UHGV virus genome: UHGV-0060065
Strand: one strand, 5' to 3'
Origin: a virus
DNA length: 24,468 bases
Shown: in pieces, positions 5,917 to 14,192 of the stretch
Position numbering within the stretch: position 1 is the first letter of the stretch
Layout of the letters: each line of letters starts with the position of its first letter
Notes under the pieces: generated by a model
Seen by the model: only the letters and a program-made list of their open reading frames with translations
Told to the model about the DNA's origin: nothing
The model's database searches: none
Translations under genes and position numbers: made by a program

Positions 5917-6282
5917 ATGATTCTCGCCAACGACTTTCTTGAATACCTGCTCAACACAGAACGTGATCTTGCCGCTCGCGTGCGTGAACGTTATGACATG
6001 TACCTGAAATCCCTGCCTGTACCGCAGCTCGCTGACGGAAAGATTGTTATTGATGGTCGCTACATGATTGACAGCCACGAGGGAAATTACAGGCTTTACC
6101 GCATTGAAGGTGGCACCCCGTCCGTTATTGGCATTTACCAGCGCCCATCCTCTTCAATCGTCGATGTGATTGCCGACAGCATCCGCATCACACATCGCCA
6201 TGCCGACACAGAAGACACCGTGCTGGAAATTCAGCGGCTGGCTACAGTCTGCCGCGACACCCTGAATGGCATGACGAAGTAA
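5917..6282 (+). CDS. Hypothetical protein (121 aa) directly upstream of replication gene A
   Basis: ORF ending 6 nt before the A start. No family was recognised. Confidence 0.55.
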   Translation: MILANDFLEYLLNTERDLAARVRERYDMYLKSLPVPQLADGKIVIDGRYMIDSHEGNYRLYRIEGGTPSVIGIYQRPSSSIVDVIADSIRITHRHADTEDTVLEIQRLATVCRDTLNGMTK

Positions 6283-6288
6283 ATCACT

Positions 6289-9111
6289 ATGACGGCAGAG
6301 TACATCAGGGACTGGCAACAACCGCGCCACGCAGTGGGGCGTGAAGGAACGGGGATCCCCGCTCCTGAATCCGCGCTTTCCTCCTGGCTGGATGCCTACC
6401 GGGCAGAGAACGAGCGCCGCCAGGAAATGGCTGATGCGGCGTTCTCCGCCACGCCGCTGGGCAACCTGATTAATAAAAGCCTGGACGCACAGGAAAAACA
6501 GGACAAAACCATCACACTGGCAGGAGACGCCAGAAAACAGGCACGCGGCGCGGTGGATGAAGCCATGGCCTCGCTGCGCCTGCTGCCGTCCTATCTGCGC
6601 GATCCGCTTATTCGCCACCTCTCCTTCCTTCGCAAAAAACAGGAAGCCGATCGCCGGAAAGGCAAAAAGAGCTGGCAGGCGGAACGCTATGCACGCGGAA
6701 CCCTGCGCAAAATATTCGAACGTCTGGATCGCACTGACGGACGCTGGCTGACACCGGGTTATCGCTCCCTTGCCGGACGCGAACGCCTGGACGATTTGCT
6801 TTACCTGCCGCAGCTCAACAAACACCAGATACAGACGCTGGCCACCATGACGGCAGCGATGTTCAGCAGCACCTTCGAAAAACTCTGCGATGGCTTTGGC
6901 GCGACTGATGGCGAACTGACCATGGATGTAACGCTGAAGGCGTATCAGATGCTGGCCCGCATGGCGTTACACCTGCACGCCATGCCTCCACATTATGACG
7001 CACTGACAACAGACAAAGACCGGAGGAACGAACCGGACACAGAGCTGCTGCCGGGCGCAATCCTTCGCCTGACCTGTGCGGAATGGTGGAAACGCAAACT
7101 GTGGCTGTTACGTTGCGAGTGGAGAGAAGAACAACTCCGCGCCGCCTGTCTGGTTTCCAGAAAAACATCGCCCTATCTGAGCCAGGACGCGTTAAGCGAG
7201 TTTCGCGCACAGCGCGAGAAAACACGCGATTTCCTGAAAAGTTTCATGCTGGAAAACGAAGACGGGTTCACGATTGATCTCGAGACAGTGTATTACGCGG
7301 GAGTAAGTAACCCGGTTCACCGTAAGGCAGAAATGATGGCCACCATGAAGGGACTGGAACTTCTGGCCGAAGCCCGTGGCGACAGAGCGGTGTTTCTGAC
7401 TGTCACCTGCCCGTCAAAATACCACGCAACAACGGAGAACGGTCATCCGAACCCCAAATGGAACGGGGCCACCATGCGCGACTCCAGCGATTACCTGGTT
7501 AACACGTTTTTTGCGGCGGTCCGCAAAAAACTGAACCGCGACGGCCTGCGCTGGTATGGCATCCGCACGGTGGAGCCTCACCATGACGGCACCGTGCACT
7601 GGCATATGATGGTCTTTGCTCATCCGGAAGAAATCGACAGCATCGTGGCCATCACCCGCGATATTGCCATTCAGGAAGACCGCCACGAGCTGGGCAATGA
7701 TATTACTCCGCGCTTTAAGGTGGAGTATGTCGACGGCTCAAAAGGCACACCAACCAGCTATATCGCGACCTACATCGGAAAAAACCTGGACAGCCGCGCC
7801 GTGGATGGCATCGACCCGAAAACGGGCAAGCCACGCGTTGACCACGAAACCGGAAAATCAATGGCCGAGAGCGTGGAGCGCGCCATCGGCTGGGCGCGTC
7901 TTCACCGGGTCCGCCAGTTCCAGTTCTTTGGCATCCCCTCCCGTCAGGTATGGCGTGAACTCCGCCGCCTTGCCAGCCAGATGGCACGCAACCCGGAAGG
8001 CCCGCAACGGCTGAAGGATGATGCAATGGATGCGGTACTCGCTGCCGCTGATGCCGGGTGTTTTGCCACCTACATTGAAAAACAGGGTGGCGTACTTGTT
8101 CCACGCAAGGACTACCTGATTCGCACAGCCTACGACCTCGCAGATGAGCTGAACGATTACGGCGAACAGAGTGTACAGATTTACGGGATCTGGTCGCCAC
8201 TCATCGGGGAATCCTCCCGTGTGTGCACGCACCCGGATAACTGGAAGCTGGTAAGACGTAAACCGGAAGCGGAAGACAGCACCCACGAAAATGGTTTTGA
8301 CCTTCAGGGCGGCCCTGCCGCCCCTTGGACTCGTGGCAATAACTGTCCCCGTGTACAGGAAACGGACAACAACGGGACAGAACAGCCGGAAGAACGGCCA
8401 GCACCGTGGCCGCAGCTCCCTGACGGCGTTGAAGTGAACGAATGGATGCGCTCACTGAAACGGCACGAACGCCGGGCGCTGATGCGTTCGCTTCGTGACA
8501 AACAGGCAAAAAACAGCAGCGATGAAATGCAGAGCTGGACACAGAGCCGCAAACAGCAGCGGCCTTTGCCTGATAACCACGAATTACTCGCTAAAGAATG
8601 GCGGGAGTCTGCCGAATCTCTCGGCCTGCATATCGGTGAACAGCAGATGCAGCACCTGTTACGGGGCGGCAGCCTGTACGTTGACGGCAGCATCATTGCA
8701 CCGCAGGGGTTTGAAATTGTACGCAAACCGGATACCCGACCGGACAGCCGGATCACGCAGCTCTGGCAGCGCCTGAGCCGTAACCACGGCGTAAGCAGCA
8801 CGGAGATCCGCCATAACCCGGTCGCAAGCTATCTGGAACAGCTGGGGGCATCAGACCCCGAAGCCGCCGCACGCCTGGCATCCACACTTCAGCAAGACCA
8901 GAACACCATGAAAACACCCGTTACCGTGCTTTCTGACATGCTGCGTGCCATCCGCGACGCAGAGCACGCACAGAGAATCAGTGAAACCACTGAACGCGCC
9001 CGCCGCAAAGCAGACCTGCTGCGGGGTGGCCTGACCATTGGAAACAAAAAACAGACAGAAACGGGATTCACAAATCCCGTAAATGAGCAAAAAACGCGCC
9101 GCGATATATGA
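6289..9111 (+). CDS. A: Rolling-circle replication initiator (P2 gpA-like HUH endonuclease), 940 aa
   Basis: HUH motif (GTVHWHMMVFAH) and paired catalytic tyrosines (TSYIATYIGKN) are present, and the position matches P2 gene A. It is longer than I recall P2 A to be (about 760 aa), with a long C-terminal extension. Confidence 0.88.
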   Translation: MTAEYIRDWQQPRHAVGREGTGIPAPESALSSWLDAYRAENERRQEMADAAFSATPLGNLINKSLDAQEKQDKTITLAGDARKQARGAVDEAMASLRLLPSYLRDPLIRHLSFLRKKQEADRRKGKKSWQAERYARGTLRKIFERLDRTDGRWLTPGYRSLAGRERLDDLLYLPQLNKHQIQTLATMTAAMFSSTFEKLCDGFGATDGELTMDVTLKAYQMLARMALHLHAMPPHYDALTTDKDRRNEPDTELLPGAILRLTCAEWWKRKLWLLRCEWREEQLRAACLVSRKTSPYLSQDALSEFRAQREKTRDFLKSFMLENEDGFTIDLETVYYAGVSNPVHRKAEMMATMKGLELLAEARGDRAVFLTVTCPSKYHATTENGHPNPKWNGATMRDSSDYLVNTFFAAVRKKLNRDGLRWYGIRTVEPHHDGTVHWHMMVFAHPEEIDSIVAITRDIAIQEDRHELGNDITPRFKVEYVDGSKGTPTSYIATYIGKNLDSRAVDGIDPKTGKPRVDHETGKSMAESVERAIGWARLHRVRQFQFFGIPSRQVWRELRRLASQMARNPEGPQRLKDDAMDAVLAAADAGCFATYIEKQGGVLVPRKDYLIRTAYDLADELNDYGEQSVQIYGIWSPLIGESSRVCTHPDNWKLVRRKPEAEDSTHENGFDLQGGPAAPWTRGNNCPRVQETDNNGTEQPEERPAPWPQLPDGVEVNEWMRSLKRHERRALMRSLRDKQAKNSSDEMQSWTQSRKQQRPLPDNHELLAKEWRESAESLGLHIGEQQMQHLLRGGSLYVDGSIIAPQGFEIVRKPDTRPDSRITQLWQRLSRNHGVSSTEIRHNPVASYLEQLGASDPEAAARLASTLQQDQNTMKTPVTVLSDMLRAIRDAEHAQRISETTERARRKADLLRGGLTIGNKKQTETGFTNPVNEQKTRRDI

Positions 9112-9156
9112 AGCGCGCATAAAACAGGCAAAAACGGGATTTCAGAATCCCGTAAA
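9059..9156. repeat. Two 25-bp near-identical direct repeats, each an 8-4-8 palindrome (ACGGGATT-N4-AATCCCGT); candidate parC/operator
   Basis: Copy 1 (about 9059-9083) lies in the last codons of A. Copy 2 (about 9132-9156) lies in the A-parM intergenic region about 30 bp upstream of the parM RBS. The copies match at 21 of 25 positions and start 73 bp apart. Confidence 0.5.
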
Positions 9157-9187
9157 CGATTAATTAATCAACATAAGGAAAAGCGAC

Positions 9188-10147
9188 ATGAAAATTTGTA
9201 TCGACGACGGCTCCACCAACATCAAGCTGGCATGGACTGAGAACGGCGAACGCCGCAACGCCATCAGCCCGAACAGCTTCAAGTCGGAATGGTCTGCGCC
9301 GTTCGGTGGCACGCAGCCCGCGAACTACATGCTTGATGGCGTGCGCTATGGTTTTGATCCGGTCAGCGATCGCTTTGTCCAGACGACCGACACGCAATAC
9401 CAGTACAGCGATGTGAATGTCATTGCCATTCATCACGCGCTGGTCAAATCAGGCATCACGCCACAGGAGGTGGATGTGGTTGTCACCCTGCCACTGAGCG
9501 AGTATTTCGACACAAACGCACAGCCGGACATGGCCAACATCAACCGCAAAAAAGCGAACGTTATGCGTCCGGTGGAGTACCAGAACGGCGAAGCATTCAC
9601 TATCCGTAACGTGCGGGTTATGCCTGAATCCATTCCGGCTGGCTTTAAGGCACTGGCTGACATGAGTCCGTTTGAATCCCTGCTGATTGTGGATTTGGGC
9701 GGAACCACGCTGGATGTGGCAAAGGTTCAGGGACAACTGGCAGGTATCAGCCAGGTGTTTTGCGATCCACACGTAGGCGTTTCCCTGATGGCCGATGCCG
9801 TACTGTCGGTGATGGCCACTAACGGTATGCGTACCAGTCACCACATCGCCAACACCATTATCGAACATCGCCATGATGAAGCCTGGCTGCGCCAGCACAT
9901 CCACAATGGCGCGCATTACGACAGCCTGATGGCGGTTATTCGTGAAAAGGAAGAGACACTGAAACAACGCGTGATCCGCGCGCTGGCGGTTTTTTCGGGT
10001 TACGGGCGGGTGATGGTTGTAGGTGGAGGAGCAGAGATTGTGGCACCCGCTATCCGCGAAGCCTGCGGAGTTAATGCGACTTTCATCGCGGACGGGGTGC
10101 CACAGTTTGCTCTGGTTAATGGGCTGTACGCAATGGACAAGGAGTAA
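9188..10147 (+). CDS. parM: Actin-like segregation ATPase ParM/StbA family
   Basis: The translation matches remembered plasmid R1 ParM along its whole length (MKICIDDGSTNIKLAW, ISPNSFK, QYSDVNV, HHAL, VMPESIPAG, LLIVDLGGTTLD, VMVVGGGAE, LVNGLYAM). RBS AAGGAAAAG. Confidence 0.85.
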   Translation: MKICIDDGSTNIKLAWTENGERRNAISPNSFKSEWSAPFGGTQPANYMLDGVRYGFDPVSDRFVQTTDTQYQYSDVNVIAIHHALVKSGITPQEVDVVVTLPLSEYFDTNAQPDMANINRKKANVMRPVEYQNGEAFTIRNVRVMPESIPAGFKALADMSPFESLLIVDLGGTTLDVAKVQGQLAGISQVFCDPHVGVSLMADAVLSVMATNGMRTSHHIANTIIEHRHDEAWLRQHIHNGAHYDSLMAVIREKEETLKQRVIRALAVFSGYGRVMVVGGGAEIVAPAIREACGVNATFIADGVPQFALVNGLYAMDKE

Positions 10148-10151
10148 ACCA

Positions 10152-10463
10152 ATGACGACACCAACCAGACGGATAAGTTTCTATCTGAAGCCCGCCGCCG
10201 TCAAGAACGAAGGCGAAGCATGCGCCTGGCTGGACAGCCTTACACCAGAAGCCCGCAAAAACGGCCAACGTGTGGCTTTTCTGGCCGGGCTGGCACTTCT
10301 GAAAATGAATCCGGCAGAGGCTTACCGACTGGCTGCATGGGCTGACGATGAGGCGTTGTCGGTGACACAAACCAGGACAGAACGCCCCGCGTCACAGCCA
10401 GTATCAACCGCACAGATAACCAGTCAGATGGCCGGAAATATCCGGGCGTTATTTCCCGAATAA
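10152..10463 (+). CDS. parR: ParR/StbB-like ribbon-helix-helix centromere-binding protein (103 aa)
   Basis: An AAGGAG RBS sits 7 nt upstream of the ATG at 10152, which lies 5 nt after the parM stop. The N-terminus (RRISFYLKP...LDSLTPEARKNGQRVAFLAGLALL) and C-terminus (NIRALFPE) resemble R1 ParR. The ORF-track entry 10023..10463 includes a spurious N-terminal extension overlapping parM. Confidence 0.6.
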   Translation: MTTPTRRISFYLKPAAVKNEGEACAWLDSLTPEARKNGQRVAFLAGLALLKMNPAEAYRLAAWADDEALSVTQTRTERPASQPVSTAQITSQMAGNIRALFPE

Positions 10464-10468
10464 CACAA

Positions 10469-10492
10469 CATCAGGGCGCATCCGCCCTGATG
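10469..10492 (+). terminator. Hairpin after parR (CATCAGGGCG-CATC-CGCCCTGATG), terminator-like with a weak U-tract
   Basis: Perfect 10-bp inverted repeat with a 4-nt loop, 6 nt after the parR stop. The following T-tract is poor (ACTTTAAT). Confidence 0.35.
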
Positions 10493-10526
10493 ACTTTAAT
10501 CCGGGAACATAAACAAGGGGGACACA

Positions 10527-10862
10527 ATGCAACACATTGACAGAGAAAAAGCGCAGCGACTGATTGAGCGAATGGAAGCGCTGGCGAAAGAAGAAAATGT
10601 CAGCATCCAAAAAATAGCTGAATGTGGCCAGATAGTTCTTCGTCGTGAAAAAGACATCAAGCAACTGATGTCTGGCGAAATCAGCAAAACATGGACTTCA
10701 GGCAAGAAGACGATTTATTGCAGCTTCTGCAATAAATCCCAGCACAAAGTCATAAAGGTGATTGCCGGACCGTCTGTTTACATCTGCAATGAGTGCGTGG
10801 ATTTGTGCAATGAAATTATCAAGGGAGAAGTGACAGACCATGAAGAAAAAACGCATGAATGA
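10527..10862 (+). CDS. Small protein with a C-terminal ClpX-type C4 zinc-binding domain (zf-C4_ClpX-like), 111 aa
   Basis: Residues about 73-106 ([36 protein letters not shown]) are nearly identical to the E. coli ClpX N-terminal zinc-binding domain ([36 protein letters not shown]), with all four Cys conserved. The preceding 60 aa are unrelated to ClpX. Strong RBS (AAGGGGGA). Confidence 0.75.
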
Positions 10863-10922
10863 CGAATTTGACGGCTTTTAATTTTATCGGGGTGCACTGT
10901 CGCCCCGCACGAGGAAAACACG

Positions 10923-11447
10923 ATGAAAAAATACGAATACATGCTAATGAAAGAAGCACTGCGGGCTGGTCTGGCTCCCTGTCCTGTATCCGTAGAAGCT
11001 GTTGTTGGGAACACGATTTTCCGAACGCTGCGAAATCGCGTATCCGTGAAGATGATTCACCAACCACCCAAATCTACCAGCATGATCTATCTGCCGCTGC
11101 CCGAGGCTATCAAACTTATGCGTTCGCTGAAATTTGCGATTTGGATGCAGACACAACTCAACAAAGCGGTGCAAAACACCTTCGTTAAGAAACTGATGCC
11201 GGAGCTTGCTGCCAGAAGTGCAAAATGTACCAGACCCGCACTTCAATTTGATCTGTCATTGATTCAACAAGCTACGGAGGCAGAACTGTACCGCCTGTCA
11301 CCTCTCCATGATGCTCACACGGAAGCCTCAGAAATGTTCCGGCTCATGTTTCAATTTAATTTTGCCGTTCGACGCACACGCATTCAGGTCAATCGCATGA
11401 TGCAGGCGCAGGAAGAGCTGACGCAACACAAAGGAGGCAACCAGTGA
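10923..11447 (+). CDS. Hypothetical protein (174 aa), predicted mostly helical; likely co-transcribed with the ZBD protein
   Basis: ORF with a GAGGA RBS, 60 nt downstream of the ZBD gene. No motif was recognised. Confidence 0.55.
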   Translation: MKKYEYMLMKEALRAGLAPCPVSVEAVVGNTIFRTLRNRVSVKMIHQPPKSTSMIYLPLPEAIKLMRSLKFAIWMQTQLNKAVQNTFVKKLMPELAARSAKCTRPALQFDLSLIQQATEAELYRLSPLHDAHTEASEMFRLMFQFNFAVRRTRIQVNRMMQAQEELTQHKGGNQ

Positions 11448-11619
11448 GCAAAATTGACTATCAGGCATTACGCGAGGCGGCACAAAACTATCAATCGACG
11501 CTGGCGTGGTATGAGGTTGACGCGGGCTAGTTTTGCCGCAAGGATAATTCGTTTCAGCGGGTGATTTTTTGCGCTATCATTCCGGCAGTGGTTCACGATT
11601 ATTGGCAGGAAAGGCAATT

Positions 11620-12213
11620 ATGAGCAGTAAAAAAAATAAAATAACATCTATGGCCGCAGCGCTGGCGGTGGCTCTCGCCCCTGTTCCTGCCAGTAGCATT
11701 GTGCATCATGACTTATCAATCTCCCGGCACAGTACGTCTACGCTATCCCTCCAGGACGTAAAGGATTCTGTGGCATACCTTCCTATTGATGAGGCCACCA
11801 GTTATATGCTTAACCTGGCTGATAGGATGAAGACACACAGGGCAAACCTTCGCATCGAATGGGAAGAAAAGCAGATCCCTATTATTCTGAAAAATCAGAA
11901 AAAAGAGACTCAGGAAGGGTTTGAAAGCCTTTTCCGTCATATTGCGGTATGTGCAAGTTTTGTCGAGGCTGCAAGGGTTGCGCTGAAAAGCGTACCTGAA
12001 AGTAACGCGGAACTGAGAAAAGAGATTGTCGCTTTTGCTCGTTCCGCTGCGACGCTCCGCTATACGATTGAAGATATTTTATCCTTCATTGAAAGCACGC
12101 ATGTGCCGAAGAAAACTTCAGATGCTGATCTGGGTGTTACCGCCGATCAGGTTCGCGCACTTATCCGCAGTGAACATAAAAAGCTGGGCCTTAAAGATCC
12201 AACGTTCCATTAA
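11620..12213 (+). CDS. Hypothetical protein (198 aa) with hydrophobic Ala-rich N-terminus; candidate partner/antitoxin of the downstream YafO-like toxin
   Basis: The internal ATG at 11620 has an AGGAAAGG RBS; the ORF track starts earlier at 11569. The N-terminus (MSSKKNKITSMAAALAVALAPVPASS) is signal-peptide-like. It ends 9 nt before the toxin start. Confidence 0.5.
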   Translation: MSSKKNKITSMAAALAVALAPVPASSIVHHDLSISRHSTSTLSLQDVKDSVAYLPIDEATSYMLNLADRMKTHRANLRIEWEEKQIPIILKNQKKETQEGFESLFRHIAVCASFVEAARVALKSVPESNAELRKEIVAFARSAATLRYTIEDILSFIESTHVPKKTSDADLGVTADQVRALIRSEHKKLGLKDPTFH

Positions 12214-12222
12214 GGCAGGGCC

Positions 12223-12603
12223 ATGATTAAAGTCTCTGTCCACAATGACATAGAACTCCCCGCAGTTGCTCGTAAATATGCACATGCTTTGCAGTCATGG
12301 AAAAACGGCGGATCTTTACCCTCAGTCTTTGGCAACGAAGGGCAGTGGGAAGATAGCGGGCGTCTTCGTGATTCTTTTGTTTTTAAGATTCACATTCGTT
12401 TACCTGATGAACAGCCGTGGCCTGCAAAGCTACCTGCCGCCTCGCGTAAATCAAACAGTTATCTTGTTTACTCCCGCCATTTCTTATATCCAGATAAGTA
12501 TCAGCTAATCAGCATTATGACACCCAATGCGCATGAGTTAGCCCGTACATCCTACATGGCAGAAATTGAGCGCAGAGCAGAAGAGTTCCAGTCTTCTTTT
12601 TGA
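12223..12603 (+). CDS. YafO-like toxin (type II TA, ribosome-dependent mRNA interferase family), 126 aa
   Basis: Similar length to E. coli YafO, with shared motifs: GSLPSVFG vs GVLPDIFG, KIHIRLP vs HIHLANE, SYLVYSRHF vs AHLVYCQGAF, LISIMTPNAHELAR vs LIAILKPEPHKLAR, and the AEEF C-terminus. The alignment is from memory. Confidence 0.6.
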   Translation: MIKVSVHNDIELPAVARKYAHALQSWKNGGSLPSVFGNEGQWEDSGRLRDSFVFKIHIRLPDEQPWPAKLPAASRKSNSYLVYSRHFLYPDKYQLISIMTPNAHELARTSYMAEIERRAEEFQSSF

Positions 12604-12645
12604 GTTTTGCGACGACTATCTATCAATCCCTTACTAATCTGAAAA

Positions 12646-12672
12646 GCTGCCTTTTGAAGGCGGCTTTTCTTT
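12646..12672 (+). terminator. Intrinsic terminator after the YafO-like gene (GCTGCC-TTTTGAA-GGCGGC followed by TTTTCTTTC)
   Basis: GC-rich stem with one G-U pair followed by a T-rich tract, about 40 nt after the stop. An A-run precedes it, so it may act in both directions. Confidence 0.5.
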
Positions 12673-12759
12673 CTTCCTGGCCTTCTTTCTCTGTTGCACA
12701 ATAGTGCACAAATTTGCACAATTTTTTTGAACGACTTTTTACCCTTCCGGCCCGCATGG

Positions 12760-13000
12760 CGGCTGGATCCGTCAAGGATCCGTGCGCGCACAAAAAAACG
12801 CGCTTTTTCTGCGCGCAGGTGACGGGGGAACAGCCCGCGTTTCAGGGGGTAAATAGCATCCCCTGAATGATGTCGCAGCGACACAACAGAATGGCTGTCT
12901 TTCTCACGCTGAGCGTGAAGAATACGTGAGGGATTCTGATTTGATGGAGTGAAAGGTAAGGCCGTCAAAATCGCACTGAGGCGGCGAGAACATGCAGTCA
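12760..13000. other. cos / packaging region (candidate cohesive-end site and terminase-recognition repeats)
   Basis: The position between the cargo and the Q stop matches P2 cos. It is dense in repeats: GGATCCGT direct repeat, GTGCGCGCAC palindrome, a 13-bp imperfect inverted repeat GCGCGCACAAAAA/TTTTTCTGCGCGC, and TTCAGGGG-N11-CCCCTGAA. A GC-rich motif GAGGCGGCGAGAAC at about 12978-12992 partly resembles the P2 cos core as I remember it. Confidence 0.4.
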
Positions 13001-13094
13001 GCGCAGTGGGATTGCGTAAGAGTCTGACCGTCGATGATGGCAATAAGCAGGAAAGCGTCGTGAAATTATCTGACTGATACAGGAGCTGGAGAGT

Positions 13095-13119
13095 CGGGGC
13101 ATAAATTTTTTATGCCCCG
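13095..13119 (-). terminator. Perfect 11-bp inverted repeat (CGGGGCATAAA-TTT-TTTATGCCCCG) just downstream of Q; probable terminator of the P-Q operon
   Basis: Palindrome about 30 nt beyond the Q stop on the minus strand. The stem-loop is AT-rich in the middle. Confidence 0.4.
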
Positions 13120-13145
13120 GCGAAGCAGCAGACAAGCGAAGCGCG

Positions 13146-14192
13146 TCAGGATGTGGGCTGGGTATCTAACAGTGCGTAAGGGTTAAAGCGGATCACCTCT
13201 TCGCCAAGCCAGTCATTGATGTGCTTCATGGCCTCCATGACGGGCATCAGCTCGTTAATTGCGTAAACCCGCGCGGCCTTCTCCACATCACCAAACGCAC
13301 TTTTTTCGCCCGGCATCGCCCCCATCAGTTGCGGCGGAACGCGGTGCGCAGCCAGCACATCATCACGGGATGCCGCCTTAACATTCATGAACTCATCTTT
13401 TGCGGTGATCTGCTGGAACGGCAAAATTTGCACCCCCTCTTTGCCCCCGTTGGGCGCATGAATGAGCACGTTTTTAAACGCACCACCACCACGTGCCCCC
13501 TGTAGCGTTTCTTTCAGGGAGTCCATGCTTTCGCGGTTTACCTGCGCTGCACCGATGTAGATGATGCACCCGGCGTGGGATCCGTTGTCGTAGTACAGTT
13601 TTCTGAACATGTCCGCCGAATGAGAAAGGCTGGCCGAGAGTAATGCGCCAAGATATTCCGGCATGCCGTAGATTTCCTGGTTAATATCCGGATTCATCAG
13701 GTGGCACACTTTGCCAGGACGAAACTGGAACGCGTCCTTGCCATCCTGCACATACCACCATGATTCAAGATCGCTTCCGCGTCGCATGTATTTCGCCAGG
13801 GCGTGCCGTAATTTAAGCGGTTCGCCGAGCATATTGCTTCGAAGCTCAAGGAATGCGTTACCGAACACAAACCAGTCCAGCGCCAGCGCCGAGAAATCCT
13901 GCCGGGAAAGCAGCGGGTGCGGGATGTAGCAACCGAGTAATACATTGCGCTTAAAGTAAAGCGCAGACTGATGCCAGGACGTTTGCCGGGCAGCTCTTGC
14001 CAGACCGTACCAGTCCACCGGGGTTTCATACCACCGCCCGTTATCAGCACAGTACATATTGTCCAGCAGGTCATGCCCGGTCAGGCGATAAGGACCATCA
14101 AATGTGAATGCACTGAGCGATGATTCTTTCCTGAGCGCATCAGCGAGATCAATGCGTGAACTCATGCGCACTTTTTTATTTTTTCTGCTCAT
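13146..14192 (-). CDS. Q: Portal (capsid vertex) protein, P2 gpQ-like
   Basis: 348 aa, close to P2 Q in length. It sits immediately downstream of and overlapping terminase P on the minus strand, adjacent to cos. Confidence 0.88.
   Translation of the reverse strand: MSRKNKKVRMSSRIDLADALRKESSLSAFTFDGPYRLTGHDLLDNMYCADNGRWYETPVDWYGLARAARQTSWHQSALYFKRNVLLGCYIPHPLLSRQDFSALALDWFVFGNAFLELRSNMLGEPLKLRHALAKYMRRGSDLESWWYVQDGKDAFQFRPGKVCHLMNPDINQEIYGMPEYLGALLSASLSHSADMFRKLYYDNGSHAGCIIYIGAAQVNRESMDSLKETLQGARGGGAFKNVLIHAPNGGKEGVQILPFQQITAKDEFMNVKAASRDDVLAAHRVPPQLMGAMPGEKSAFGDVEKAARVYAINELMPVMEAMKHINDWLGEEVIRFNPYALLDTQPTS

Follow-up and report, generated by a model that had tools for sequence, protein, structure and literature searches.

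Between parMR and a YafO-like pair in the DNA of a P2-related prophage lie a gene for a ClpX-type zinc-binding domain (ZBD) protein, a gene for a 174-aa protein and a 28-codon ORF, and the question raised by this locus is whether the three form one dedicated system or are separate pieces of cargo. A first-pass annotation of the stretch analyzed here (UHGV virus genome UHGV-0060065, 24,468 nucleotides, hereafter the window) had read them as one candidate operon of unknown function, suggestive of a multi-component anti-phage or superinfection-exclusion module. All of its coordinates and sequence details were present in the window, including the gap of exactly 60 nt (10863-10922) between the ZBD gene and the 174-aa ORF, the GTG at 11444 that overlaps the preceding TGA stop (GTGA), and the AAGGAGG (11431-11437) placed 6 nt upstream of this start codon (Table 1). 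We conclude that a P88-like P2-family prophage very probably carries this interval as mosaic accessory cargo at its gpA-gpQ hotspot, and not as a dedicated three-gene system.

Table 1. Features of the cargo interval and its borders (positions in the window).
Feature	Position	Strand	Evidence or remark
parM	9188-10147		ORF map of the window
parR	10149-10463		ORF map of the window
G+C-rich hairpin, 10 bp	10469..10492	.	Terminator-like match; right after the parR stop; left edge of the variable cargo
Hypervariable cargo segment, three sub-cassettes	10492..12690	+	BLAST of the window vs L002, L003, L004
Stand-alone ClpX-type ZBD protein, 111 aa	10527..10862	+	Pfam PF06689
63-nt leader of the 174-aa gene	10860..10922	+	Cross-locus conservation
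174-aa protein gene, WP_000759757 type	10923..11447	+	dN/dS; no domain match
ead/Ea22 5' junction block: AAGGAGG, GTG overlapping the upstream stop, first 24 ead codons	11427..11516	+	Pfam, PHROG, alignment
28-codon ORF, a pseudogene: the first 24 codons from ead, then 4 foreign ones (VDAG) before a cassette-supplied stop	11444..11530	+	PGAP, alignments
1.17-kb cassette that cut ead	11517..12690	+	Breakpoint alignments
197-aa protein	11620-12213	+	ORF map; part of the inserted cassette
YafO-family toxin	12223-12603	+	Pfam YafO_toxin, E=2e-27
Terminator-like hairpin of the cassette	12641-12669	+	Terminator scan
Portal gene (gpQ)	13146-14192	-	ORF map of the window

Setting of the cargo in a P2-family prophage

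The host element of the window is a parMR-carrying, P88-like P2-family prophage of E. coli. Upstream of the cargo are parM and parR, and the flanking ORFs agree with the PGAP annotation of a prophage that is ~98% identical over the shared region. When the window was compared by BLAST with three sister prophages (L002, L003, and L004), the conserved backbone stopped at ~10491 and resumed at 12691-12695; the backbone is 97-98% identical on either side, and the content between 10492 and 12690 is unrelated, different gene sets being carried between the two borders by the sister prophages. Homology to L003, a cargo-poor sister, stops at 10491.

The gpA-gpQ region, which is the site of old/tin and of several validated defence systems in the P2 family, is a documented hotspot (Rousset 2022; PMC9122126). 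The first-pass annotation had placed the three genes in the tin/old region of P2, between parMR and the YafO-like pair, and this placement was confirmed: the site lies between gpA and gpQ, and its content varies on a conserved backbone. This hotspot also takes up cargo unrelated to defence, partition systems and toxins for example, and a partition system is present in about a quarter of P2-like phages (Rousset 2022; PMC9122126). The arrangement of our locus has already been catalogued, down to the exact gene string, StbA + Plasmid_stab_B + zf-C4_ClpX + WP_000759757 + WP_000095653 + YafO (Table S5A of Rousset 2022; PMC9122126), and the PGAP proteins here are exactly the last two of this string, WP_000095653 and YafO. 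The pair of the 197-aa protein and YafO is hotspot system 123 in the same work (Table S5B). Our locus thus shares with the hotspot cargo described there its gpA(+parMR)-gpQ position, its variation among near-identical prophages and its gene string, but among the entries listed in the accessible part of that source no curated or tested one matches the ZBD, 174-aa, or ead sequences, and the hotspot systems that this part reports as assayed are others than this one. An Rfam scan of 10300-12800 gave no match.

The 28-codon ORF is the stub of an ead/Ea22 gene

The 28-codon ORF (translation VSKIDYQALREAAQNYQSTLAWYEVDAG) had been taken for a distinct mini-gene coupled to the 174-aa gene. Judging from the alignments, it is instead the leftover 5' start of a truncated ead/Ea22 gene, cut by the YafO cassette, and not a new mini-gene. 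Pfam Ead_Ea22 (PF13935) matched it at positions 1-23 of 139 only, with E=1e-5 and a score of 26.6 bits against a gathering score of 27, and both phrog_250 and phrog_368 matched as well. The segment 11445-11516 shows 94% nucleotide identity to the intact ead gene of L003, with two amino-acid differences over 24 codons, and nucleotide alignments placed the breakpoint of ead at 11516/11517. In CDE6306 and DSM 103246, PGAP called the ORF a pseudogene ("ead/Ea22-like, incomplete, missing C-terminus"), and intact ead genes of 144-196 aa begin from an identical AAGGAGG-N6-GTGA junction in ETEC4090, RM11911, UMNF18, and 210205630. The ORF carries the N-terminal motif (SKIDYQALREAA...) and the usual 5' junction of the Ead/Ea22 family (lambda Ea22, P22 Ead), but the coiled-coil and the C-terminal domain described for Ea22 (PMC10834534), which belong to full-length members of ~140-200 aa, are missing.

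A block equivalent to the Shine-Dalgarno sequence, the start codon and the first ~15 codons was present in 1523 of 5426 E. coli genomes, behind widely differing upstream genes, and the first part of the junction block (to ~11487) was also found in Stx and mEpX1 phages. That a short ORF here has a Shine-Dalgarno sequence and an overlapping start is not a matter of chance, because these were inherited from a real ead gene; since ead cassettes as a rule have this Shine-Dalgarno sequence, GTG and overlap at their 5' junction, the 28-residue peptide may still be made as a by-product. The remnant arose when the ead gene beyond codon 24 was replaced by the cassette encoding the 197-aa protein and YafO, an insertion carried by seven of the 5426 complete E. 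coli genomes.

It is conceivable that the peptide has a function of its own, the retained N-terminal Ead domain serving as a micropeptide that is, for example, dominant-negative against the Ead/Ea22 proteins of co-resident or incoming lambdoid phages, although we consider this exceedingly unlikely. With its Shine-Dalgarno sequence, start codon and coupling intact, the peptide is probably translated, and no part of the family is better conserved than the segment that it retains; the ORF, however, keeps just 24 codons out of 144 or more, and the domains that define the Ea22 architecture are gone. A 38-codon ead-like ORF following a distant homologue of the 174-aa gene in locus L005 would be in line with a functional micropeptide, but with a contig end 98 nt away it may be a truncation too. 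All copies of the YafO-cassette arrangement that were annotated or parsed carry the same stub; they share one breakpoint and are nearly identical, which points to a single recent event, so that the retention of the stub is uninformative on selection. This case shows that a mini-ORF may look well coupled and yet be a scar of recombination: the strong Shine-Dalgarno sequence here and its GTGA overlap come from a junction block found in ~1,500 E. coli genomes.

A near-copy of the ClpX zinc-binding domain

Judging from its sequence and its predicted structure, the ZBD protein is a private two-helix hairpin (residues 6-48) fused through a flexible linker to a near-copy of the zinc-binding domain of the host ClpX (C4 ZBD, residues 63-100). 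Pfam zf-C4_ClpX (PF06689) matched the protein with E=3e-17 and 62.6 bits (gathering score, 27), and its PHROG match was phrog_6797. The protein aligned with the E. coli ClpX ZBD chains 1OVX and 2DS5, its ZBD region being 71-80% identical to the E. coli domain. The four cysteines (C65, C68, C87, and C90) were invariant in the ZBD alignment, and ClpX residues F16 and I46, which lie in the hydrophobic patch where lambda O, SspB, RssB, and TF bind (PMC7804408), were both conserved when the protein was aligned to the ClpX chains. The AF2 model had a pLDDT of 80.5 overall and 84-90 over the domain, and Foldseek superimposed it on 2DS5, 2DS6, 2DS7, 2DS8, and 1OVX with an rmsd of 0.5-1.8 A.

While the protein is like the ClpX N-terminal ZBD (PF06689; 1OVX, 2DS5-2DS8) in its zinc cysteines, in a fold superimposing at ~1 A and in F16 and I46, it differs from ClpX in having no AAA+ module and in its private N-terminal two-helix extension of ~50 residues. 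The ClpX models TIGR00382/PRK05342 were matched only at positions 3-53 of ~415, with 48.5 bits against cut-offs of 359-371. The ZBD gene has a dN/dS of 0.24-0.32 at depth and was present in 112 E. coli genomes. Prophages and phage-plasmids, P88, PhiR44_2, and D6 among them, encode homologues; those of D6 are full-length and adjoin an ead gene within a run of other small accessory genes.

The 174-aa gene and its conserved leader

The 174-aa protein had been described as unrecognized, and it indeed had no match in Pfam, PHROGs, NCBIfam, or PADLOC. It is predicted to be beta-rich at its N-terminus and to continue with three long helices. The AF2 model was poor (pLDDT 51.5, pTM 0.29) with no interpretable fold, and its Foldseek comparison with the PDB gave nothing below E=2. 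No match was obtained by tblastn against 50,697 phage records. The family comprises only 8 clusters at 90% identity and 3 at 50%, and a profile search over 1.84 billion representatives matched only 3 clusters, all of this same small family. The gene was found in 29 E. coli genomes with a dN/dS of 0.19-0.30; it is a real gene under purifying selection, lineage-restricted and travelling with its own conserved 63-nt leader. A 109-aa ORF that lies out of frame over it (10859-11188) was judged spurious because its frame relative to the 174-aa gene differs between loci.

The leader begins at the stop codon of whichever gene is upstream, here that of the ZBD gene, and holds a 7-bp hairpin (10888-10907) and a GAGGA Shine-Dalgarno sequence. 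Its first ~37 nt are identical or carry at most two substitutions in all loci compared, and it is conserved even in L005, whose coding sequence has saturated synonymous sites. The leader was present in 46 E. coli genomes. Its conservation is far above that of synonymous sites, and the cassette model alone is not a sufficient explanation for it. Three candidate roles were examined and rejected: as a structured RNA, its folding was not exceptional (z=-0.2) and no Rfam family matched; as a sigma-70 promoter, none was found in a scan of 9100-13200, and no acceptable -10 element was seen by eye; and as a mini-ORF (MNDEFDGF) or uORF, its start codon and frame vary across loci, with too few substitutions for a test.

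Linkage of the three genes

Among the 29 genomes with the 174-aa gene, the ZBD gene was upstream in 10 and absent in 19, in which the intact 174-aa gene is 96-100% identical; an ead annotation was downstream in all 29. An intact 174-aa gene was found in only ~10 of the 112 ZBD genomes. In UTI89-type prophages the ZBD gene is followed by four unrelated genes, in C7-type prophages by the leader, an inactivated 174-aa stub and a Doc/Phd pair, and in CDE6306 the ZBD gene is a pseudogene next to an intact 174-aa gene. In some viral contigs the 174-aa gene is followed or interrupted by a non-ead gene, a methyltransferase-like insert or an IS element, and ead is replaced, interrupted, or truncated in several lineages. 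As for conservation of the three-gene arrangement, a trio of ZBD, 174-like and intact ead genes does recur in two diverged allele sets (ZBD ~42-53% and 174-aa protein ~70-78% identical), but the three genes do not co-occur consistently across genomes. Short 3' remnants of the ZBD gene lie ahead of the leader in L005 and L013, loci now without the gene, and the adjacency of the ZBD and 174-aa genes may therefore be ancestral and functionally meaningful.

The proposal of one operon holds in part. The genes are spaced on one strand by the 60-nt gap and then a 4-nt overlap, and a promoter and terminator scan gave no sigma-70-like or plus-strand terminator-like site between 10527 and 12640. Because the genes are co-oriented and tightly spaced with no such intervening site, their co-transcription is plausible, and it would probably extend to parMR; an obligate unit they are not, as shown by the 19 genomes without the ZBD gene. 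The interval is assembled from modules that recombine where one gene ends and the next begins, at overlaps of stop and start codons, and the 174-aa gene is normally followed by an ead/Ea22-family gene via the GTGA overlap. The locus resembles the accessory trains of temperate enterobacterial phages (lambda exo-xis/ea, D6 orf88-orf102), in which small, overlapping or coupled same-strand genes, including ead/Ea22 and ZBD homologues, are shuffled at their boundaries. It differs from them in lying in a P2-family genome downstream of parMR, and in having the 174-aa gene, which is absent from the phage collection searched.

Could the prophage nevertheless express the ZBD protein, the 174-aa protein, and the 28-residue peptide together as a single multi-component system for anti-phage defence or superinfection exclusion? 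They do sit in a hotspot that is home to old/tin and several validated defence systems, but this hotspot also takes up partition systems and toxins. The shared strand, the short gaps, the absence of a plus-strand terminator-like site between the genes and the recurrence of the trio with an intact ead in two diverged versions would suit such a system; the third component here, however, is a truncated pseudogene, the components occur independently, and ZBD and ead homologues are also found in the ordinary accessory trains of D6 and lambdoid phages. The role assigned to Ea22 in published work is pro-lysogenic and not defence (PMC7093339, PMC10834534), and PADLOC-DB v2 gave no match at E<=1 for the ZBD, 174-aa, stub, 197-aa, YafO, or intact ead protein. 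On this evidence the defence module of the first-pass annotation appears highly improbable.

We also regard as quite unlikely a functional pair of the ZBD and 174-aa proteins, for example with the ZBD protein as a ClpXP adaptor or anti-adaptor for the 174-aa protein or a partner, ead being only loosely attached and the ZBD-less copies degenerate. Adjacency is kept across diverged alleles, the remnants in L005 and L013 suggest an ancestral ZBD-174 unit, and the first triplet of the conserved leader is the ZBD stop codon, but the 19 genomes in which the 174-aa gene is intact on its own, together with the ~90% of ZBD genes that have other downstream partners, argue against a dependence of one gene on the other, as does the inactivation of the ZBD gene alone in CDE6306 and of the 174-aa gene alone in C7-type prophages. 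Mosaic accessory cargo thus remains the reading that we prefer.

Possible functions and significance

While the anatomy of the interval, the truncation of ead, the modularity and the purifying selection are direct observations, the functions of all the proteins are those that we infer. The 174-aa protein may be an early accessory protein working with or beside its Ead partner. The ZBD protein lacks the AAA+ motor but appears to preserve the surface by which the ClpX N-domain dimerizes and binds its ligands, and it would most likely act as a decoy or competitor in trans, competing for substrates and adaptors that depend on this N-domain, such as lambda O, MuA, SspB, and RssB. Alternatively, it might pair with the N-domain of ClpX itself. 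By either route, the set of proteins degraded by ClpXP would be altered. A literature search for stand-alone phage ClpX zinc fingers found nothing relevant. We propose tentatively, as a rather doubtful reading, that the ZBD protein is a phage mimic that titrates or heterodimerizes with the ClpXP docking site used by lambda O, MuA, SspB, and RssB and so reprograms host proteolysis for the benefit of the prophage. If this were true, ClpX-dependent phages such as Mu might be excluded, ClpXP-labile antitoxins or replication proteins might be stabilized, and the 174-aa protein, whose gene has the ultra-conserved leader, could serve as client or regulator in this scheme.

As a three-gene defence module, the locus deserves little weight, since it is not conserved as a unit and one of its members is a remnant flagged by standard annotation. 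What has been isolated is two uncharacterized cargo genes. One encodes a near-copy of the domain at which ClpX docks its substrates and adaptors, and it occurs in more than 100 E. coli prophages as well as in phage-plasmids; the other is the narrowly distributed 174-aa gene. The possible mimicry of a ClpX domain is the one lead worth testing; it would be cheap to pursue and could reveal a phage strategy that manipulates ClpXP.

Anatomy of the Locus

The first-pass annotation had proposed that a stand-alone ClpX-type zinc-binding-domain (ZBD) gene, a 174-aa gene, and a coupled 28-codon ORF form one candidate operon, suggestive of a multi-component anti-phage or superinfection-exclusion module, and its ORFs, spacing, GTGA overlap, and AAGGAGG are all present exactly as claimed. 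The gene order agrees with the PGAP annotation of the Escherichia coli CDE6306 prophage (~98% identity over the shared region), and the prophage belongs to the P2 family, specifically to the P88 type that carries parMR. The CDE6306 prophage, the closest full-length relative of the window arrangement, is a decaying copy with two pseudogenes: a frameshift disrupts the replication endonuclease and an internal stop the ZBD gene. Both genes are intact in the window. A complete actin-type partition system lies between gpA and the cargo of this integrated P2-family prophage. Partition systems are carried by about a quarter of P2-like phages, for which plasmid-like maintenance was suggested (Rousset et al., 2022).

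Coordinates of the features in the window and in the loci compared with it
Feature	Position	Details
Upstream neighbors		940-aa replication endonuclease (gpA type), parM, parR
parM/parR	9188-10463
ZBD ORF	10527-10862	111 aa
Spacer, ZBD ORF to 174-aa ORF		60 nt
Leader of 174-aa gene	10860-10922; L005:5933-6003; L006:5933-6003; L013:3499-3568	63 nt in the window; L006 and L013, further loci compared
174-aa ORF	10923-11447
Junction block of ead	~11427-11487	Shine-Dalgarno, start codon, first ~15 codons
Shine-Dalgarno AAGGAGG	11431-11437	six bases 5' of GTG
28-codon ORF	11444-11530	GTG overlapping the TGA stop of the 174-aa ORF
Cassette replacing the ead 3' part	11517-12690	1.17 kb: 197-aa gene, YafO gene, terminator-like hairpin
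197-aa/YafO pair	11620-12603
Downstream neighbors		197-aa ORF, YafO-family toxin; then portal and terminase genes on the opposite strand
CDE6306 prophage	L001:1886-4712; 6269-6457	endonuclease and ZBD pseudogenes
E. coli C7, cargo swap with inactivated 174-aa fragment	L012:3463-4381
38-codon ORF of GCA_035793495.1	L005:6522-6638
Phage-plasmid D6, ead-ZBD neighborhood	L039:3312-4300

The 28-Codon ORF and the Inserted Cassette

The 28-codon ORF is a pseudogene remnant of ead. It matches Pfam Ead_Ea22 at positions 1-23 of 139 only (E=1e-5), as well as the N-termini of two ead-type PHROGs, and the identical sequence in CDE6306 and DSM 103246 is labeled by PGAP as an [quoted passage not shown] An intact ead (174-196 aa) opens at the identical AAGGAGG-N6-GTGA junction behind the same 174-aa gene in ETEC4090, RM11911, and UMNF18, while a 144-aa ead gene lies directly 3' of parR in strain 210205630, its first 24 codons differing from the window peptide by two substitutions (94% nucleotide identity). 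The ead homology breaks off at 11516/11517, and the final four codons (VDAG) and the stop are foreign DNA belonging to the cassette. Published work ascribes a pro-lysogenic role to Ea22 and divides the protein into three parts, namely a short N-terminal domain, a coiled-coil, and a C-terminal domain (PMC7093339, PMC10834534); the stub retains the first only.

The consensus Shine-Dalgarno and the coupling are no special feature of this locus. The junction block also occurs in Stx and mEpX1 phages, and 1523 of 5426 E. coli genomes hold an equivalent, some with as many as seven copies; these lead into ead genes and are preceded by a wide variety of genes. In GCA_035793495.1 (L005), the stop of the most diverged 174-aa homologue (44% identity) overlaps, through TAATG, the start of a 38-codon ORF whose N-terminus is ead-like (MGEINYQALREIAKQATQGEW...). 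The contig ends 98 nt beyond this ORF, which may be another, independent truncation of ead.

Backbone homology to all sister prophages picks up again at 12691, behind the cassette. Of 5426 complete E. coli genomes, 7 contain the cassette. The same ead stub occurs in every annotated or parsed cassette copy, which points to a single truncation event that spread afterwards. Instead of a YafN-like antitoxin, the YafO-family toxin is paired with the 197-aa protein, which begins with a signal-peptide-like hydrophobic N-terminus (MSSKKNKITSMAAALAVALAPVPASS...) and gave no domain match; type II toxin-antitoxin pairs are not usually built in this way. This pair is listed as untested hotspot system 123 with 24 occurrences (Rousset et al., 2022, Table S5B).

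Do the Three Genes Form a Unit?

The candidate operon first proposed is supported in part. Co-transcription is plausible: the three ORFs lie on one strand with tight spacing, and a scan detected neither a terminator-like site on the + strand nor any promoter-like site between them. Two diverged sets of alleles each show a trio of ZBD, 174-like, and intact ead genes. In loci now without a ZBD gene, the leader is preceded by short remnants of the ZBD 3'-end, and the ZBD-174 adjacency may therefore be old. The genes do not, however, always stay together. The complete E. coli genomes include 29 with the 174-aa gene and 112 with the ZBD gene; the latter is upstream in only 10 of the 29, and parR is fused directly to the leader in 19 of them. 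Most ZBD genes have unrelated genes behind them (e.g., in UTI89), and that of CDE6306 is itself a pseudogene.

Approximately 16 C7-type genomes carry the ZBD gene, the leader, and an inactivated 174-aa stub adjoining a Doc/Phd pair. This swap of cargo is separate from that at ead, and in this prophage family the 174/ead module has been overwritten by toxin-antitoxin cassettes more than once. In E. coli C7, the 5' fragment of the 174-aa gene is inactivated by ATG to ATA and in-frame stops, and Doc/Phd runs on the other strand. Some viral contigs have a non-ead 79-aa gene or a methyltransferase-like insert opening at the junction behind the 174-aa gene, and in one contig an IS element splits the 174-aa gene. 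The pattern is that of cassettes swapped at gene boundaries with stubs left behind, not of a co-selected system. Given this exchange, the truncated third ORF, and the fact that no PADLOC model matches any of the cargo proteins, the reading as a three-component defense module is not supported.

The 174-aa Gene and its Leader

The 174-aa ORF is a genuine protein-coding gene, with pairwise dN/dS of 0.19-0.30 at synonymous divergences from 0.6 up to saturation. The family to which it belongs is tiny, comprising eight clusters at 90% identity and, among 1.84 billion representatives, three at 50% identity, with no match in 50,697 phage records or in Pfam, PHROGs, NCBIfam, and PADLOC. All homologues examined come from P2-like elements and occupy the same site there, flanked by the replication and portal genes. 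The AlphaFold model (beta-rich N-terminus and three long helices) is of too low confidence for use (pLDDT 51.5), and the Foldseek search recommended in the first-pass annotation found no match with it.

The leader starts at the stop codon of whichever gene is upstream (ZBD type 1, ZBD type 2, or parR). In all loci compared, its first ~37 nt never differ by more than two substitutions, even in one where the 174-aa protein is only 44% identical and synonymous sites are saturated. Synonymous sites of the gene behind it change far faster than the leader. The leader matched neither Rfam nor a sigma-70 promoter scan, and its RNA folding is unexceptional. A possible 8-codon mini-ORF (MNDEFDGF) within it is preceded by a good Shine-Dalgarno in part of the loci and lacks a start codon elsewhere. 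The conserved leader is a minor feature of the locus.

Hotspot Cargo and the ClpX-Like Domain

The gpA-gpQ region of P2-like phages is a diversity hotspot with 1,650 arrangements, whose content includes non-defense genes, and exactly the window's arrangement is in Table S5A (Rousset et al., 2022). The parM, parR, 174-aa, 197-aa, and YafO accessions in that table are those given by PGAP to the CDE6306 prophage. ZBD, 174-aa, and ead sequences were not found in the accessible part of the curated systems of the same study. The interest of the locus is low because it is of a known kind, already catalogued down to this arrangement.

The residual lead is a candidate ClpX N-domain mimic. Over residues 59-104, the ZBD protein shares 71-80% identity with the E. 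coli ClpX zinc-binding N-domain, and its model (pLDDT 80.5) superimposes at ~1 Å on crystal and NMR structures of that domain, including the complex with an SspB tail peptide. The hydrophobic region through which ClpX binds lambda O, SspB, RssB, and trigger factor includes F16 and I46 (PMC7804408), both of which are conserved in the alignment. The 111-aa protein has no AAA+ module; residues 6-48 are confidently predicted as a two-helix hairpin. Full-length relatives, hairpin included, were recovered from Escherichia and Salmonella; they are carried by phages P88 and PhiR44_2 as well as by the phage-plasmid D6 and its relatives. In D6, the homologue lies immediately 3' of an ead/Ea22 gene within a long train of small accessory genes; P1/D6-like phage-plasmids (D6 and E. 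coli plasmids of ~106-111 kb) carry full-length homologues (~50% identity) directly after ead/Ea22. The ZBD and ead genes therefore move within one pool of small accessory genes that spans unrelated temperate phage families. We infer only that the ZBD protein could be a competitor or partner of the ClpX N-domain: a motor-less copy of the docking domain would compete or pair with ClpX's own N-domain, and the choice of substrates and adaptors by ClpXP would thereby be altered.
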